Source: Candidatus Marinacidobacterales bacterium
GTDB lineage: Bacteria; Acidobacteriota; Vicinamibacteria; Marinacidobacterales; SMYC01
Assembly (NCBI GenBank): GCA_965237955.1
Contig: OZ250169.1
Location: 1,120,001-1,184,000 of the forward strand
DNA length: 64,000 nt
Direction of reading: 5' to 3'
Positions 8,747 to 19,372 of this stretch are shown in pieces. The notes under the pieces were generated by a model. It was not told the origin of the DNA and searched no databases. It worked only from the letters and a program-made list of their open reading frames with translations. A program made the position numbers and the translations under genes. How positions within the stretch are numbered: position 1 is the stretch's first letter; every line of letters begins with the position of its first letter.

Positions 8747-8999
8747 GGAGCGCGTGTAGGACGGTATGAGACACTGATGGCCTACAGCGTGAATTCCGGG
8801 TAACAGTTCTTGGCCGAGGATACTACGATGAGAAGAATGGACTTTGAACGGTGGACTCGAACGGTGCCGGCACTGGTTCGAATGGCAACTGTGCTGTGAT
8901 CCCGTGCAGTCCGCAGCCCCGGGCCGCAGGGACAATCGAACGTTGTTCTTCGGAACCAGCGTGACTTGGCGGCGGTATCGGTTCCGAGTGGGGGCGAAG

Positions 9000-9857
9000 G
9001 TGAAACGTCTATCGTTAGTGGCTCTGTTTGTGGGCGTGATCGTTTCAGACGCCTACGGAACAGAATGTGAAGAATTCGTCCCGTTCGCACAACCCGTCAA
9101 GCGCACGGTTGTCGGTCGGCAGAACACCGGAGAGCTTGAGCTCACCGTAATCTGCCACGAGGGACAGGTGGTGGGGTTCAACTCGAACCACAACGTACCG
9201 GACTGGGTTGCGCACCGATTGATGCGCGACGACTTGCTGTCCCCTGCGGTTGAACGGGAGAACGCATTCCGAAGCGACCCGCAAGCGCAGGTCGGCCACC
9301 GTGTCGAGCCGTCAGATTACCGGAGAACCGGGTACGACCGAGAGCATATGGCACCCGCAGGTGCAATGAGGTGGTCAGAAGAGGCCATGAGCGAGAGCTT
9401 CTTTATGACGAACATGGCACCGCAAGTTGGTGCAGGATTCAACCGAGGAATCTGGCGATCGCTAGAGCGCAAGATGCGGCAATGGGCATGCGAGCGCGGA
9501 ACACTCTACGTCGTAACCGGTTCTCTCTATGAAAAGCGTCCCGTCGAACAGCTCGTGTTCGATGGCAACGGCGATGGAGTGGACGACAACGGAATTCTCG
9601 TTGACGTCCCGTCACACTTCTACAAGATTGCTGTTGATCCAACCGCTATGGAAGCCATTGCGTTCATCCTTGAGAACAAAAGAGCGACGACAGCGGATTT
9701 GCCCAAGTTCTTGGTTAGCATTCGTGATGTTGAAGTGCGCAGCGGGTTCGACTTCTTCAGTGGCATCTGGGACGGAGCGGAATACGTGATCGAGAGTCAT
9801 GTGCAGCCAGACCTATGGGAGGATCCAAAGGATGACCGATGCGAGCGCCTCCGGTAA
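9000..9857 (+). CDS. Secreted DNA/RNA non-specific endonuclease (NucA / beta-beta-alpha-Me family)
   Basis: GTG start with signal peptide. YDREHMAP, FFMTNMAPQ..GFNRGIWRSLE, VPSHFYK motifs. Confidence 0.9.
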   Translation: MKRLSLVALFVGVIVSDAYGTECEEFVPFAQPVKRTVVGRQNTGELELTVICHEGQVVGFNSNHNVPDWVAHRLMRDDLLSPAVERENAFRSDPQAQVGHRVEPSDYRRTGYDREHMAPAGAMRWSEEAMSESFFMTNMAPQVGAGFNRGIWRSLERKMRQWACERGTLYVVTGSLYEKRPVEQLVFDGNGDGVDDNGILVDVPSHFYKIAVDPTAMEAIAFILENKRATTADLPKFLVSIRDVEVRSGFDFFSGIWDGAEYVIESHVQPDLWEDPKDDRCERLR

Positions 9858-11595: not shown

Positions 11596-13023
11596 CGTCC
11601 TGTGCCAAAACTCGGCTCTTTTGAAATAGGCCATCAATCAGCAACTTAGTGTCTGTGTTTGCGACCGGGCCAAGGGCCGTGGGCTTTACAATCGTCTTGG
11701 GCGGGCGGGTCGTCACCATGCAGATGACCACCTAGTCGAGAGCGAATATCGAAGCGTGTTCCTGAAGCGGTTTCCACGCTACGCCGGTCGAGCCCGCCGA
11801 GGGGCTACCGTCGCCGGCGACCATCTACGCGGCACGGCAGTAGTAGTTGAGAATGCCCACAAGTCGCTCTCGCGACACGATGGGGCCAGCGTCATTCGCG
11901 CTTGCCGGCAGAGGTGTGAGGAGCTCGTTGCCGAGACCTTGGTGGTTCCGTTCTGTGTGATAGTGCACTACGTATTCGGTTACCGCTGTGCGCAGGTGTC
12001 GCTCACTGAGAGGTACGAAGCGGTCGAGACACTCTCGACGTATGGAGAGAACGAATCTTTCCGCATATGCGTTCAGATTCGGACTATTAGCGGGAAGGCG
12101 AAGGGGCTTCACGCCTGAATCTCTCAACAGCCCACGTACCGCCTCGGTGAATAGCGGGTCCCGGTCGTGGATGAGGTATCGCTTGCCAAGGAGGAAACCA
12201 TCCCACATGTCAGTGAGGTTTCTTGCCACCTGCTTCATCCACTCCCCGTTGGGGTCCGACGTTATCCCACCGATGCACACGCAGCGAGTGGCGATATCGA
12301 TGACAAACAGGACATGGTAGCGGACGAGCCCGAACGGGTTCACCACCTCGACGGTGAACAGGTCTGTCGCAGCGATGGCACCCCAATGAGCCTTGATGAA
12401 GGTGCTCCACGACATGCTCCTGCCCCGCTCCGGCGCAGGAGCGATACCGTGCTCGGCGAGGATACTCTTGATAGTGTTGCGTCCGAGTTCATGTCCTAGG
12501 TTCTTGAGTGCGCCTCGCAGGCGCGTATATCCCCACGTCGGGTTCTCCCGCGCCACGCGCACAATGAGCTCACGGATGTCCTTCGCCGTCGGAGGTCGGC
12601 CTGGACTCCGGTTCTTGCTGCCATCGTACTTGGCTGCGATGAGGTGGCGGTACCAGCGCAGAAGCGTAGCGGGTGTGGCAACGGACGCAATCTGGGCCAG
12701 CGCCTCGCGGCCCAAAGCCTGGGCCTTGACCGCGAGCCTGCGCCGGTCGTCGTCCGAGAGACTGAGACGCTTGCCCCGAAGCCCGGCTCGGAGCACACGG
12801 TTCTCCTCTTGCAGGTAGTCGATCACATCCTGCTGCTGGCGGTTGACCCAGCCAGCTAGAACGAGCAGTAGGAATTGCACGTGGTACGTCATCATGGACC
12901 TGAAGATAACACCCTCGGGCCAGACGATTGTAAAGCCTACGGCCCTTGGTCCGGTCGCAAACACAGACACTGAGCTGCTGATTTATGGCCTATTTCAAAA
13001 GGGCCGAGTTTTGGCACAGGACG
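11596..13023 (-). mobile_element. Long-TIR rve transposable element, intact copy 2 (1428 bp)
   Basis: ~100-bp TIRs enclosing one uninterrupted transposase ORF. Confidence 0.9.
11825..12895 (-). CDS. Integrase-core (rve) DDE transposase with HTH
   Basis: [48 protein letters not shown]. Likely ATG at 12895 (the longer ORF begins inside the TIR). Confidence 0.85.
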
Positions 13024-13344: not shown

Positions 13345-13469
13345 CGTCCTGTGCCAAAACTCGGCCTTTTGAAACAGACCATAATATCAGCAGCTTAGTG
13401 TCTGTGTTTGCGACCGGGTCAAGAGCCGTGCTTCGGCTACCCTGTGCCTTCTATTTATTCATCCGCACG
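13345..13469 (+). repeat. Stacked mobile-element end remnants (CGTCCTGTGCCAAAACTCGG and CCTGTGCCTTCTATTTATTCATCCGC)
   Basis: Direct sequence match to the termini at 4371 and 1811/1975. Confidence 0.7.
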
Positions 13470-13670
13470 GGTGCTTCCGCCATTAAGTGTTGGTAGCTGC
13501 CGCTTAACCCGCTCACGTGCTAGAGTTTGAGCCTGACTTCGAGAGACGCAGTCCTTTCGGCGATGCCGGCTGGGCTGACCACGCGGTGCCTGATGTTCAG
13601 GGACATCGTTTATGGCGTTCGCCGGCAAAGGCAGGCCAACTGACACTAGCATTCAACCGCGGCGTAGCAA

Positions 13671-14348
13671 CATATCTGGACTCCTCTAGTCAAGCCCCTT
13701 TCTTAATAAATCTTCCATCGAAGCTGCGCATCCATCGCGTCGTGACGAGTGGGTCAGACTGCAAACGTATCTTCGGCCTCAGTGAGGAGCGTCTTGGGTG
13801 CTCCGGGCCATGATGGAAAATCCGCGCGCGAGGAGCCAATCACTTTGAACGACCTCTTAGGGCCAGTGTTGCTATCGGCTTGACCCCGCGCCGGTCCGAC
13901 CGGTACGCCATCAGTTGGATGGGTATCGTCGCAGCCTCTTTTGGAAGGGAAAAAGGAAAACACGAAAGTGGAGCCTCTAAGTCTAAGCGGCCATCGGCGA
14001 CTGGAATTCATATCTGGACTCCTCTAGTCAAGCCCCTTTCTTAATAAATCTTCCATCGAAGCTGCGCATCCATCGCGTCGTGACGAGTGGGTCAGACTGC
14101 AAACGTATCTTCGGCCTCAGTGAGGAGCGTCTTGGGTGCTCCGGGCCATGATGGAAAATCCGCGCGCGAGGAGCCAATCACTTTGAACGACCTCTTAGGG
14201 CCAGTGTTGCTATCGGCTTGACCCCGCGCCGGTCCGACCGGTACGCCATCAGTTGGATGGGTATCGTCGCAGCCTCTTTTGGAAGGGAAAAAGGAAAACA
14301 CGAAAGTGGAGCCTCTAAGTCTAAGCGGCCATCGGCGACTGGAATTCA
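13671..14348. repeat. Tandem direct duplication, 338-bp period, of the IS1111 right end
   Basis: CATATCTGGACTCC... begins at 13671 and 14009. The copies appear identical. Confidence 0.95.
14095..14265 (-). ncRNA. Predicted bridge RNA / seekRNA (second copy at ~13757-13927), boundaries approximate
   Basis: Minus-strand GCCGA-TAGCAACA...AAGTGAT-TGGC target loop and TTCCA...AGATACG donor loop match the element's flanks and ends. Confidence 0.75.
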
Positions 14349-15352
14349 CTCTCGCGGGTGGAGACGGCCCAGACGATCCGGGCGAGTTTGTTGGCGACAG
14401 CAATCACGGCCTTGTTGTGTCCCCGCGAGCGGTGGACCTTCCGAGCCCAGGCGCGGAGCTTGTCGGGCGGGCTCTTACTGACGTTCGCCGCGCGGAGCAC
14501 GGCGCGCCCGCCCTGGGTGAGGAGCATACGGAGGTAGGAGTCGCCACGCTTGGTGATGCGTCCGAGGCGGCGAATGTCGCCACTGGAGTTTTCCTTGGGA
14601 ACTAGGCCGAGGTAGCTCGAGAAGCGGCGCCCCGATGGGAAGCGGCGAAGATCGCCGACGAAGCCCACGATGGCGGTCGCGGTCAGAAGTCCGATGCCGG
14701 GAATGGCGAGAAGTCGTTGGACTTCAGGAAGCTGCTTGGTGAGCGCCTTGAGCTCGTGCTCGATGCCAGCGCACTTGTCCTTGAGTTCTCGAATCTCGGA
14801 GCAGGCATCACGGAGATGCGAACGGAGCACGTCGGGCAAATCAGAATCAGCGTCTTCGACGAGTTCGAAGAGGGCGGGCACGACGAAGTGAGCGCCCTTT
14901 GGGATGATGAATCCGAGTTCGCGCAGGATCCCGCGTACGGCATTGATGCGTGCGGTCCGTGTGGAGAGCCATCCTGAGCGCAGGCGATGGAGCGCGGCGA
15001 GGCTGTGCTGGTGCACGGACTTAATGGGCACGGGAAGAATCTCCTCGTTCCTGTAGGCCTCGAGCAACGCTTTGGCGTCGGCGCGGTCGTTCTTGCTCCC
15101 GCGTCGATAGGGCCTCACGAGGTGAGGTGGGAGCAGGACGACGTCGTGTCCCAACCTTCGGAACGTCCTTGCCCAGAAGTGAGCAGAGCCGCAGGCTTCG
15201 AGAAGCACGGTGGCAGCGCTCTGTTTGGCAAAAAACGACACCAACTTGGGTCGACTCACACGGAGTTGCTTGGACACCTTCCCCGCTTCTCCCGAGATGG
15301 CAATCTCGAAGACGTTCTTTGCAAGATCCACAGCGATCGTCGTATCTTTCAT
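14321..15352 (-). CDS. IS110/IS1111 DEDD recombinase (transposase)
   Basis: IAVDLAKNVF, LLEACG, SKNDRADA, GLVPKENSSG, VIAVANKLAR. GGAGGAG RBS. Confidence 0.95.
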   Translation of the reverse strand: MKDTTIAVDLAKNVFEIAISGEAGKVSKQLRVSRPKLVSFFAKQSAATVLLEACGSAHFWARTFRRLGHDVVLLPPHLVRPYRRGSKNDRADAKALLEAYRNEEILPVPIKSVHQHSLAALHRLRSGWLSTRTARINAVRGILRELGFIIPKGAHFVVPALFELVEDADSDLPDVLRSHLRDACSEIRELKDKCAGIEHELKALTKQLPEVQRLLAIPGIGLLTATAIVGFVGDLRRFPSGRRFSSYLGLVPKENSSGDIRRLGRITKRGDSYLRMLLTQGGRAVLRAANVSKSPPDKLRAWARKVHRSRGHNKAVIAVANKLARIVWAVSTRESEFQSPMAA

Positions 15353-15530
15353 TCGGACTCCTCCTTTTCGATGCGTATTCGACTGACTTTGGCACATCGA
15401 TGCCGTCTATGTCAGCGGAGGAGTCCATTCCATCACTTGATTGTGAAAGCACCCGTTCTCGCATATGCTGGTACTTCCCTGCAATTCCGTAGAGTCGGTG
15501 AGAATGCAGGGACACGCTCCCGACACGGAG

Positions 15531-16478
15531 ATGACCACTGTGTGCACCATGAGATCGCTTCTCGGAGCTTCCGCGCTGGCTGTGGTCGGCACCGGACTGA
15601 TCGCCGGCAAGGCCTCGGCGCAGTCGGCGTCCGGCTTCTATCTGAACCAGGAGGTCGGGCTCAACGTCGCGTCGGCGGTTGAGTTGCTCGGCAACAGCAA
15701 CGACCGGGCCAGCCGCTGCGACGAGTTCATCAACCCCCGCTTCGCGGAGGTCCCCGGTTGTACCGACCCGAACCGCGGGTCGGGCGCGGGTTGGAAGACC
15801 ACGTACGACCGCGCCGCCGGGATGCTAGCTGGGCTGTCGGGCGGCTACCGGTTCGGCGGGCGGCTGCGAGTCGAGGTGGAGTGGTTCCATCGGGAGTCGG
15901 AGTACGACCAGACCTCGTCGGTGACGAGCGCGACCGGCGACACCTTCGCGAAGCTGGGCGGCGAGATCCAGCGGGCCGAGGACCGGATCGGCAGCATCTC
16001 GTCGCAGAACATCTTCGCCAACGTGTACGTCGACTTCCCCGGCCGGACTCGTCTGATGCCGTACGTCGGGGTGGGGGTTGGCATCGGCCTGACCGAGCTG
16101 GACTACGGCGACTTATGGGCGCGGAACCCCAACCCTGCCGCGATCGCCACGGCCGCGGGCCTCCCGAACGAGACGGAGATACGCCGGAACCTCGCGGCGA
16201 CCACGACGAGCAAGCAGGCAGAGTTGCACGACCGACTGACCGGGTACCAGGTGCTGGGCGGCGCAGACTATAGGATGTCGGAGATGTTATCGCTCGGCGT
16301 CAAGGTCCGCTGGGTGCGCTTCGGCCGCTTCACCGCCGAAGACATCGAATGGGAGCGCCTCCGGAGCCACGCGTCGCAACTGCGTCTTGACGGCAGCGAA
16401 CCGGTGACATTCCGCATCCGGACTGACGGCGCCCTCTCGTTCGTGGGCGTCACCTTGGCCATGCGGTACACGTTCTAA
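15531..16478 (+). CDS. Outer-membrane beta-barrel protein (OMP_b-brl / P44-Msp2-like)
   Basis: Signal peptide ...ASA|QSASGFYL, GYRFGGRLRVEVE, PYVGVGVG, terminal RYTF. Start could be 15531 or 15549. Confidence 0.8.
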   Translation: MTTVCTMRSLLGASALAVVGTGLIAGKASAQSASGFYLNQEVGLNVASAVELLGNSNDRASRCDEFINPRFAEVPGCTDPNRGSGAGWKTTYDRAAGMLAGLSGGYRFGGRLRVEVEWFHRESEYDQTSSVTSATGDTFAKLGGEIQRAEDRIGSISSQNIFANVYVDFPGRTRLMPYVGVGVGIGLTELDYGDLWARNPNPAAIATAAGLPNETEIRRNLAATTTSKQAELHDRLTGYQVLGGADYRMSEMLSLGVKVRWVRFGRFTAEDIEWERLRSHASQLRLDGSEPVTFRIRTDGALSFVGVTLAMRYTF

Positions 16479-16903: not shown

Positions 16904-17818
16904 TCATGCGGGCACCTTGTTCGCACGGCGCTCACGCCGCAGCTTCCGAGCCTGCTCGAGTTTGCGGTCTCGCTCCGACCAGATCTGGGTGGCCTTGCCA
17001 TCCATGAAGTCCAGCGGCGCAATGTAGCCGATCGCGCTGTGCAGGCGAACCCCGTTGTAATATTCGACGAATCGTTCCATCAAGCGGCGAGCCTCTTCGA
17101 GGCTCGTGGGGCTGGCAGGACGCAGGGCGTCCGATTTTATCGTCTTGTGCCAACGCTCGATCTTCCCGTTCGATTGCGGGTAGTACGGCGCGGTCCTCAC
17201 GTGCGTCATCCCTGAGATGCGGATGAATGCCTTGAAGTCCTTCGCGATGTACTGCGGACCGTTGTCCGAGATGATTCGAGGCCGCGCATCGGGGTACCGC
17301 TCCTTTGCTCGCTCCAAGATGCACTCCACATCCGCTTCCGTCATCGACTCACGAATCTCCCAGTGAACCACCGCGCGGCTCGCACCATCCAGAAACGAGC
17401 AGAGGTAGTAGAACGTCCCACCCAGGTTCAAGTACGAGATATCCGTGTGCCAGTGCTGGTGCGCTCGCAGCGGCTGAACGAAGCCCGTTCCCTTCTTCGA
17501 CGGCTTCGGGTTCCAACGGTCCAGACGACCCGCCTTCGACAACACCCGGTACGTCGTCGAGGGGCTAACTGCCACCACGTCTTCGTCCAGCATCATGAAC
17601 GTGAGTCGGCGATACCCGTCCAGTGGGTGGCAGTCGAAGTAGTCGATCACGGACTGGCGCTCCCATTCTTCGATCCAGTGATCCCGCGGCACCAGGCCGT
17701 TGTGCTCATTCACCTTCCCGTACCGCTTGCGCCAGTCGTAGAACTTGCCCCGAGCGATCCCGCACCACTGAACGATCTGCTGGACCGGAAGCTGGGTCTT
17801 GGTGGCGATTGTGTTCAC
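16904..17818 (-). CDS. IS3 family OrfB DDE transposase (joined to OrfA by -1 frameshift at A8C ~17881-17888)
   Basis: WHTDISY, IISDNGPQY, YPQSNGKIERWH, YNGVRLHSAIGY. Confidence 0.9.
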   Translation of the reverse strand: MNTIATKTQLPVQQIVQWCGIARGKFYDWRKRYGKVNEHNGLVPRDHWIEEWERQSVIDYFDCHPLDGYRRLTFMMLDEDVVAVSPSTTYRVLSKAGRLDRWNPKPSKKGTGFVQPLRAHQHWHTDISYLNLGGTFYYLCSFLDGASRAVVHWEIRESMTEADVECILERAKERYPDARPRIISDNGPQYIAKDFKAFIRISGMTHVRTAPYYPQSNGKIERWHKTIKSDALRPASPTSLEEARRLMERFVEYYNGVRLHSAIGYIAPLDFMDGKATQIWSERDRKLEQARKLRRERRANKVPA

Positions 17819-17843
17819 GAAGTCGACAACCTCGTCACGACGG

Positions 17844-18194
17844 TCATGGGGAATCCAGGCACCACTCAGGCTTCCCCAAGTTTTTTTTGAGTGTCACGTA
17901 CTCTTCGGTCACCTCAGCGATGATCTGATCCTTACGGGCCACCTTCGCCTCGAGACGGGAGAGCTTCTCCTCTAGCTCCTTCTCACGGCTCGGCGCACGA
18001 CGGAACGAAAACACCGTATGGGCTCCAGCCAATAGCTCCCTTTGCCATGTGTAGAACAGGCTCGGCTGGATTTCTGCCTCGTTGCATACCTCCGAGACCG
18101 GCTTTTTCTCGGCAACGTGCTGGCGCAACAGCTCTGCCTTTTGCTCCGCAGTGTGACGACGACGACCTTTGCTCATGACAGCTCCTTTTTCCAT
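17844..18194 (-). CDS. IS3 family OrfA
   Basis: HTH (RRHTAEQKAELL...FYTW) plus coiled coil, ending at a slippery A-run. Confidence 0.85.
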   Translation of the reverse strand: MEKGAVMSKGRRRHTAEQKAELLRQHVAEKKPVSEVCNEAEIQPSLFYTWQRELLAGAHTVFSFRRAPSREKELEEKLSRLEAKVARKDQIIAEVTEEYVTLKKNLGKPEWCLDSP

Positions 18195-19372
18195 GTGCGT
18201 ATTTTAACTTCAGGACTGTCATGTTCCAGCTGAACCGAAACACTCGCGGTCAAGGCCCAGGCTTTGGGCCGCGAGGCGCTGGCCCAGATTGCGTCCGTTG
18301 CCACACCCGCTACGCTTCTGCGCTGGTACCGCCACCTCATCGCAGCCAAGTACGATGGCAGCAAGAACCGGAGTCCAGGCCGACCTCCGACGGCGAAGGA
18401 CATCCGTGAGCTCATTGTGCGCGTGGCGCAGGAGAACTCGACGTGGGAATATACGCGCCTGCGAGGCGCACTCAAGAACCTAGGACATGAACTCGGACGC
18501 AACACTATCAAGAGGATCCTCGCCGAGCACGGTATCGCGCCTGCCCCGGAGCGGGGCAAGAGCATGTCGTGGAGCACCTTCATCAAGGCTCATTGGGGCG
18601 CCATCGCTGCGACAGACCTGTTCACCGTCGAGGTGGTGAACCCGTTCGGGCTCGTCCGCTACCATGTCCTGTTTGTCATCGATATCGCCACTCGCTGCGT
18701 GTGCATCGGTGGGATAACGTCGGACCCCAACGGGGAGTGGATGAAGCAGGTGGCAAGAAACTTCACTGACATGTGGGATGGTTTCCTCCTTGGCAAGCGA
18801 TACCTCATCCACGACCGGGACACCCGCTATTCACCGAGGCAGTACGTGGGCTGTTGAGAGATTCAGGCGTGAAGCCCCTTCGCCTTCCCGCTAATAGTCC
18901 GAATCTGAACGCATATGCGGAAAGATTCGTTCTCTCCATACGTCGAGAGTGTCTCGACTGCGTATTCCAGCCATCGTGAACGCCGAATCCAGAGCAAGCT
19001 GAACAGCGAATCCGGTGAAGCCGAACGCTCATCGAAGCGATGAAGTGTTGGGTGACCTCCTTTCCACTGATTGAAAACGTGAACCTATCTTACCTGCGTG
19101 TTGTGTAGCAAGGGGCGGCAGGTCGGTGCCGGAGGGAGCGGGCGTAAGGAAAGACGCGAAGCGACCTTCCCGCTCCCGTAGGCAGCGACCTGCCGCGGCC
19201 GAACCCCGGGCGATGTGGGGCTGGTTTCGGGGGGTTGCTGGGGTATGGCCTGGCTCGAGAAGACGCTTCCTGAGGCATTCTCGCGCGTCGTTTTGGCGCC
19301 GCATCGTCTGGTACCCCGGGTTTGGCGGTTTCACCCGTTTTTATCGCATCGACGCTGTGGTCCCTCGCTCGC

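Follow-up and report, generated by a model that had tools for sequence, protein, structure and literature searches.

An IS1111 element of the ISPa25 type with a duplicated tail bearing a probable guide RNA, in the inverted repeat of an IS1-like element and its MITEs

IS4321 and IS5075 are reported to target other mobile elements at the terminal inverted repeat. Their host repeat is of the Tn21 family, whereas the element described here occupies the 23-bp repeat of an IS1-like element and MITEs, at essentially one of its two ends. The closest named element among plasmid records is ISPa25, with a transposase 46-47% identical, the same left end (TGATGGAA-TGGACTCCTCC), a near-identical right end and the same RNA scaffold, as RNA model R1 scored 106 bits on the ISPa25 3' region, which lay outside its training set. 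ISPa25 targets attC (PMC11187229), in contrast to the IS1-like end targeted here, and its right junction carries C where this element has T. At 47% identity, far below the level of copies of one IS, and with other guides and another target, the present element shares neither the identity nor the attC target of ISPa25. The seekRNA systems of ISEc11, ISKpn4, ISPst6 and ISPa11 resemble it in the downstream non-coding region, the order of the matches, the 7-bp and 3-bp terminal extensions and the absence of a target duplication, and the natural reprogramming between the close relatives ISEc11 and ISXne4 resembles that seen in this clade (PMC11187229). Differences from those systems are that a second RNA domain matching the element ends is readable here, and that 4 of the 18 copies with complete ends have their tail in tandem.

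The bridge RNA of IS621 (PMC11208160, PMC11208158, PMC13626964) is likewise made of donor and target domains with four guide segments and serves a DEDD plus serine active site. It lies in the left end, with reversed guide order and a shared CT core, whereas in this clade the left guide is short, the donor guides lie in a multiloop, the right register shifts by 0-2 nt and target and donor have no two-base core in common. In ISPpu9 with ssr9, copies of the IS110-family element bring along an additional RNA-gene module that has an end of its own, as here; that module has dedicated end boxes and also moves alone (PMC12288879), whereas the extra tails described below start at many unrelated N-G sites.

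The window, 64,000 nucleotides of Candidatus Marinacidobacterales DNA, contains an intact IS1111-type insertion sequence of 1763 bp on the minus strand at 13673-15435, including a duplicated 3' tail. The genome is referred to as G000 where coordinates are given. The parts of the element are as follows.

13673..15435, minus strand: the complete IS1111-type element, its 3' tail duplicated (25 left and 25 right junctions in the genome, empty sites, an identical 1763-bp copy)
14011-15435, minus strand: single-unit form of the element, 1425 bp
15428..15435, minus strand: left terminal extension T-GATGGAA, equal to the right-donor sequence (empty sites; identical left end in ISPa25)
15418..15427, minus strand: TGGACTCCTC, the subterminal inverted repeat of the left end, perfect over 10 bp and with one mismatch over 11 bp (sequence)
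14321..15352, minus strand: DEDD transposase of 343 aa, open frame (PF01548 and PF02371; NF033542; motif positions)
14084..14261, minus strand: predicted bridge/seekRNA core, first copy (alignment A1, consensus fold and a match to RNA model R1, whose training set includes the window)
14011..14024, minus strand: inner right end, where the inverted repeat and GATA meet a TG site inside the transposase 3' end (sequence and junction survey)
13673..14010, minus strand: 338-bp exact tandem copy of 14011-14348, with the last transposase codons, the second guide-RNA copy and the outer right end
13746-13923, minus strand: second guide-RNA copy, inside the 338-bp tandem copy (RNA model R1)
13673..13693, minus strand: outer right end with a -35-like TTGACT (13693-13688), inverted repeat (13686-13677) and GATA (sequence; predicted junction promoter)

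An IS1111-type element with an intact transposase had been proposed from the sequence, and this is borne out: the protein matches both PF01548 and PF02371 and scores 308.9 bits against NF033542 (cut-off 140), carries residues D9, E52, D89 and D92 together with the S257-G258 motif (DEDD plus SG), and its 343 aa fall within the IS1111 size range of 330-350 aa. The solved relatives ISCro4 and IS621 are distant from this transposase. The subterminal inverted repeats, 10 bp perfect and 11 bp with one mismatch, compare with an IS1111 norm of about 11-13 bp, and a non-coding region of 310 bp separates the stop codon from the first right end, downstream of the transposase. By sequence comparison the element is assigned to the IS1111 family as a member of the ISPa25 type.

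The left end lies at T 15435 and not at 15432, because unoccupied copies in the genome read CAAG-TG-TTG, and public contigs from runs X1, X2 and X3 pass straight from CATCAAG into the T of TGTTGCTA (loose ends at L138:1497). At the corrected ends, the extensions outside the 11-bp repeat are TGATGGA on the left (7 bp) and ATA on the right (3 bp), the lengths given for IS1111 elements in PMC11187229; the ends first proposed would give 4 bp and 3 bp. Joining of the corrected ends would create a predicted promoter, TTGACT-18 bp-TGGAAT, and a sigma-70 scan of the linear element returned 0 promoter-like sites. A circle junction was found neither in G000 nor among the contigs of 8 public runs, which as contigs drop rare forms. 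Pieces of a relative are present among the contigs of RNA runs X16-X18.

Four segments of the non-coding region are read as guides.

14203..14212, minus strand: right-target guide TAGCAACACT, complementary to AG-TG-TTGCTA, 10/10 (covariation)
14179..14183, minus strand: left-target guide AAG+TG (covariation; empty sites)
14149..14156, minus strand: right-donor guide TTCCATCA, with 8/8 complementarity to TGATGGAA at the left end
14104..14110, minus strand: left-donor guide AGATACG, 6/7 against the right end plus TG, its C being the commonest state in homologs

The six segments quoted in the original prediction are all present where it placed them, letter for letter. Its 8/8 match at 14205-14212 stands and is lengthened by the corrected ends to ten of ten (14212-14203). 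The donor match TTCCA (14152-14156) also holds, and with the corrected junction it extends to eight of eight (14156-14149). AGATACG (14104-14110) does correspond to the right end plus TG, at six positions out of seven. The 7-nt left guide fared less well, as only 3 nt and the junction covary strongly and its final AT equals the element's own left end. These two RNA bases (14178-14177) are nearly invariant in homologs (alignment A1) and extend the match into the element's own left end; when the element excises, the target loop could in this way recognise the left junction. The chance of an exact match was taken from 3000 dinucleotide shuffles of the 310-nt region. For the segments as first quoted it was 0.2% (8-nt right-target), 0.9% (7-nt left), 36% (TTCCA) and 19% (AGATA); after correction, the right-target 10/10 match occurred in 0 of 3000 shuffles, the right-donor 8/8 match in 0.5% and the left-target AAG+TG in 14%. 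On the minus strand 14212-14203 precedes 14183-14179, so that the top-strand match lies 5' of the bottom-strand match, an IS1111 feature.

The original prediction omitted the exact duplication, in which 13673-14010 repeats 14011-14348 over 338 bp, guide RNA included, and which gives the window two guide-RNA regions. Such tails recur. In G000 the partner of 6 of the 25 right ends is an internal site (4 distinct sites), and among 44 related loci there are 5 that carry 2-4 right ends. The survey yielded 12 distinct right-end-to-internal joins, 11 in assemblies and one in runs X16/X17. The second position of the internal site is G in 11/11 assembly sites and in the X16/X17 site, against a background of 27%, and the first is T in 7/11. 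Two identical 1763-bp copies occur in different hosts. At L132 (G000 3051914-3054422) there are four right ends and four guide-RNA copies, with extra units of 396, 292 and 396 bp; L030 and L031 have tail repeats of 29 and 46 bp, and L031 is inserted one base off the usual register.

We favour joins made by the transposase; one-ended joining of a right end to a new site in vitro is described for another IS110 element in bioRxiv 10.1101/2025.10.25.684509. The duplication would likely arise when the transposase joins the right end to an internal N-G site of an element copy, and the longer form would then likely have moved as a unit. Nested self-insertion followed by homologous deletion, mini-circle reintegration, slippage or misassembly, in place of a direct one-ended attack, make up a less probable account that still carries real weight. 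All of these but slippage yield the identical final structure, RNA-gene mini-circles are formed by ISPpu9 (PMC12288879), the 'goes back' join in X16/X17 could be a circle, and the internal sites are slightly more like the right target and the left end than other G sites are (p about 0.01 each). Against these routes, no nested copy with two left ends was found in G000, the internal sites match the left guide at 9/33 positions, which is the chance level, the final base of the element is the precise starting point of each join, a pattern that neither slippage nor misassembly would favour, and three assemblies and one pair of runs show such joins at different sites. None of the public runs examined contained the 338-bp join of the window itself. 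Searches of G000 revealed neither tail-less reciprocal copies joined to a right target, the truncated copies ending at other elements, nor free tail modules in a target.

A check proposed with the original prediction was whether the four segments lie in two internal loops of a folded RNA. In a consensus fold of 29 sequences, with 31 pairs of which 15 show double-sided changes, all four guide columns are unpaired. Both target guides lie in an internal loop; the donor guides sit in a multiloop, an arrangement seen in many IS1111 elements (PMC11208160). Consensus pairs are paired in 93.9% of cells, against 35-41% for slid partners, with the structure derived from the same alignment. The guides sit in loops of this covarying structure. 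Folding of the single sequence is weak evidence by itself: z is -2.77 for the 310-nt region (14011-14320) and -0.71 for the guide core alone, the latter not better than shuffles, and a few guide bases are paired in it. Model R1 matches in 6 of 21 genomes searched, G000 among them, and a search of window positions 13400-15600 against Rfam gave no match at E up to 1.

The donor guides and the ends are nearly constant in homologs, and the right-donor match reaches 5-8 of 8 in 28 of 30 rows, the other two having been mis-picked by the pattern. This near-constancy makes covariation thin on the donor side and leaves room for a seekRNA that reads the target only, in which the first loop picks the target while the protein recognizes the ends by their subterminal repeats, the donor matches having no active part. 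For ISEc11, short RNAs of 82 nt carrying the target matches were found sufficient in PMC11187229. Such a division of labour is nevertheless unlikely here, as the donor-matching segments lie in a conserved, covarying second domain and a few paired donor changes occur: the L032 type has the right end GATAT with the guide GATATG, and in L119/L120 and in L121 the first left-end base and the opposite guide base have changed together, as judged by eye.

The insertion point lies 18 bp inside the downstream inverted repeat of the IS1-like element and its MITEs, and in the window the host is a MITE of 221 bp.

13470..13672, minus strand: the 221-bp host MITE on this side of the insertion, comprising its body and, at 13470-13492, its far inverted repeat; 13672-13665 form the right half of the target
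15436..15453, minus strand: left half of the target, consisting of the 18 outermost bp of the inverted repeat that is split in the host MITE

Among the 25 left ends and 25 right ends of the element in G000, 24 left ends follow the same 18-bp context at one position and in one orientation, and copies scattered in unrelated flanks, which would have spoken against the original prediction, are thus not what is seen. Of the 19 right ends joined to outside DNA, 18 read TG-TTGCTA. The context is the 23-bp inverted repeat, with 185 copies at <=3 mismatches and 215 at <=4 in G000. Occupancy follows both target guides: in the 215-site list the filled repeats have CAAG-TG (22/22), the empty TTGCTA-type repeats do not (0/10), and 41 repeats with CAAG-TG-TTGG, the other end type, are empty. 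A perfect CAAG-TG-TTGCTA sequence at G000 3549654, which is not among the listed repeats, carries no insertion. The element itself is the only difference between a filled and an empty site, with no target duplication. In related genomes of Candidatus Marinacidobacterales, 55 of 61 left ends lie inside the repeat and the 6 outside it end in AAG or GAG; the outermost right junctions read TG-TTGCTA in 32/44, and some of the 12/44 that depart may be tail joins or cuts at locus limits. A one-base bulge in the left guide (TC at -5/-4) was also considered; it fits 4 of the 6 off-repeat sites and does not fit homologs generally.

Covariation of guides and flanks, proposed earlier as a check, was scored on 61 parsed loci. 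Two of these came from G000, only 2 of its many near-identical copies being included. A left flank with its left guide was available at 30 loci and a right flank with its right guide at 27, the others being incomplete or missed by the patterns. One row was kept per distinct guide, and the right guide was scored at the best of three registers, swapped pairs likewise. The last 3 left-flank bases agree with their own left guide at 51/54 positions over 18 distinct guides (swapped pairs 27%); positions -4 and -5 agree in 8/18 each, and those beyond are at chance. Right flanks agree with their own right guide at 133/147 positions over 21 distinct guides (swapped pairs 54%), with 0, 1 or 2 bases to the next stem in 12, 7 and 2 of the 21. 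None of 100000 permutations reached the left or the right total, a significance inflated by kinship of the homologs, as are the shuffle controls. The co-change of guides and flanks makes RNA guidance likelier than a site choice by protein or DNA structure, with incidental RNA matches; the latter, for which it may be said that the target lies in a repeat of about 200 copies bound by another transposase, is highly improbable, given that guides change with flanks over 18-21 guide types, that the same holds in a 91%-identical sibling of the same genome, and that the 6 of 61 insertions in relatives that are off-repeat keep the guide-matched bases.

The locus as first read, with the target AAGTGA-TG-TTGCTA, the circle junction CAGATA-TG-GAATGG and a TG core, is virtually untenable: a TG is found at 15432-15431 and the RNA AAGTGAT matches that left junction at 7/7, yet this target, 3 bp off at the left end, occurs 0 times in the genome, the empty sites read CAAG-TG-TTGCTA without the extra 3 bp and refute it, T-GAT is kept at the left junctions of homologs with unrelated targets, and the ends so placed leave 9 bp instead of 12 between the 10-bp repeats and a promoter spacer of 15 bp.

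The corrected junction is predicted as CAGATA-TG-ATGGAA. Nor is the TG core a property of the system, as homologs have T in 51/54 left junctions and C in 24/27 right junctions, with a first right-flank base of G, C and A in 17, 9 and 1 of 27. TG stands on both target and donor side in this element only, and the clade has no shared two-base core. Whenever GATA is followed by something other than the usual T, the base found there is the one that the attacked site has, as at L031 and in internal joins with C, G or A; the strand crossover therefore probably falls just left of this base.

The IS1111 element of the ISPa25 type sits in the inverted repeat of an IS1-like element and its MITEs, and its 3' non-coding region very probably gives rise to an RNA that guides the DEDD transposase there. 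By analogy with studied relatives, the ends would join into a circle, CAGATA-T-GATGGAA, and so create a promoter. The first loop of the RNA would pair with both strands of AAG-T-GTTGCTA, and the second, multi-branched loop with the joined ends; crossover would take place just left of T, with no duplication and no required two-base core. Four steps of this scheme are borrowed from PMC11187229, PMC11208160, PMC11208158 and PMC13626964, namely circle formation, the promoter at the junction, binding of the RNA and strand exchange.

The 23-bp host repeat bounds MITEs of about 166 and 220-245 bp, as well as a 1197-bp element with a 371-codon frame. At G000 7863073 the host of an identical 1763-bp copy is full-length, has an open frame and carries the insertion in its downstream repeat. 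The best family for the host transposase is NF033558 (IS1), at 78.6 bits and below the cut-off of 100, and an IS1/IS1595 zinc domain scores 20 bits against a cut-off of 28. Members of the IS1 family duplicate 8-9 bp of target. For the host, no direct repeat >5 bp was found in 40 repeat pairs of G000 and 32 of relatives (e.g. L134:58-1254), which is unusual for an IS1-like transposase; the host may be a separate group. The first two bases of the inserted element restore 20 of the 23 host repeat positions, and insertion may inactivate the host end or may allow the element to travel with the host. Short tandem repeats of the host outer repeat and flank lie just outside several filled sites (G000 2861941-2862099, 2974136, 3011922, 7874087 and 7862976-7863055), which suggests repeated activity at the host end after insertion.

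An attC site was at one stage considered as the target of this element; it was dropped once the 23-bp repeat and its transposase had been found, and was kept for a sibling only. The sibling (L130, G000 5245816-5247238, at 5.247 Mb) is 91% identical, with 93% protein identity, and both its target guides have changed in step with its flanks. Its rebuilt empty site forms a long bottom-strand hairpin that pairs TAAC with GTTA (z -3.38, 0/300 shuffles), features which we take to fit attC. Many homologs have attC-like right flanks, as judged by eye, and G000 encodes an integron integrase above cut-off (3346207-3347146). Further empty sites for the sibling's guides numbered 0 exact and 10 loose matches. 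Retargeting likely ran from attC to the IS1-like end.

A broader reading is advanced tentatively: the right end may be joinable to almost any N-G site with little guide pairing, so that heritable, mobile tandem arrays of the guide-RNA gene are built repeatedly; together with a three-base left guide and a three-register right guide this may allow easy retargeting that does not depend on a shared core, as in the switch between an attC-like site and an IS1-like end in siblings 91% identical. Searches of open-access literature, narrow in their wording, returned no paper on tail duplication, attC retargeting or this host, one unrelated paper on IS1/MITE end targeting, and one review listing on the targeting of other elements.

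The element is a new, well-supported IS1111 member, and the gain is incremental, since there are precedents both for the mechanism and for insertion into the end of a different element. Its value is that of a fully readable IS1111-type recombinase with corrected ends, a target and about 20 natural guide variants. Compared with IS621, these suggest design rules of a short left guide, a sliding right guide and no shared core, and the natural traces of right ends joined off target are relevant to how specific enzymes of this kind would be in editing.

Around the element, the window contains a DNA/RNA non-specific endonuclease gene (8844-9857, PF01223) and an outer-membrane beta-barrel gene (15465-16478), with the MITE and the element in the upstream region of the latter. 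Integrase-core transposases like those of IS481/IS3, below family cut-offs, lie at 11825-12970 and 18264-18979, and an IS3-family element with two frames (16904-18194, NF033516 above cut-off) lies within the second IS481-like copy. The abundant end repeat of the IS481/IS3-like element truncates several IS1111 copies in G000.
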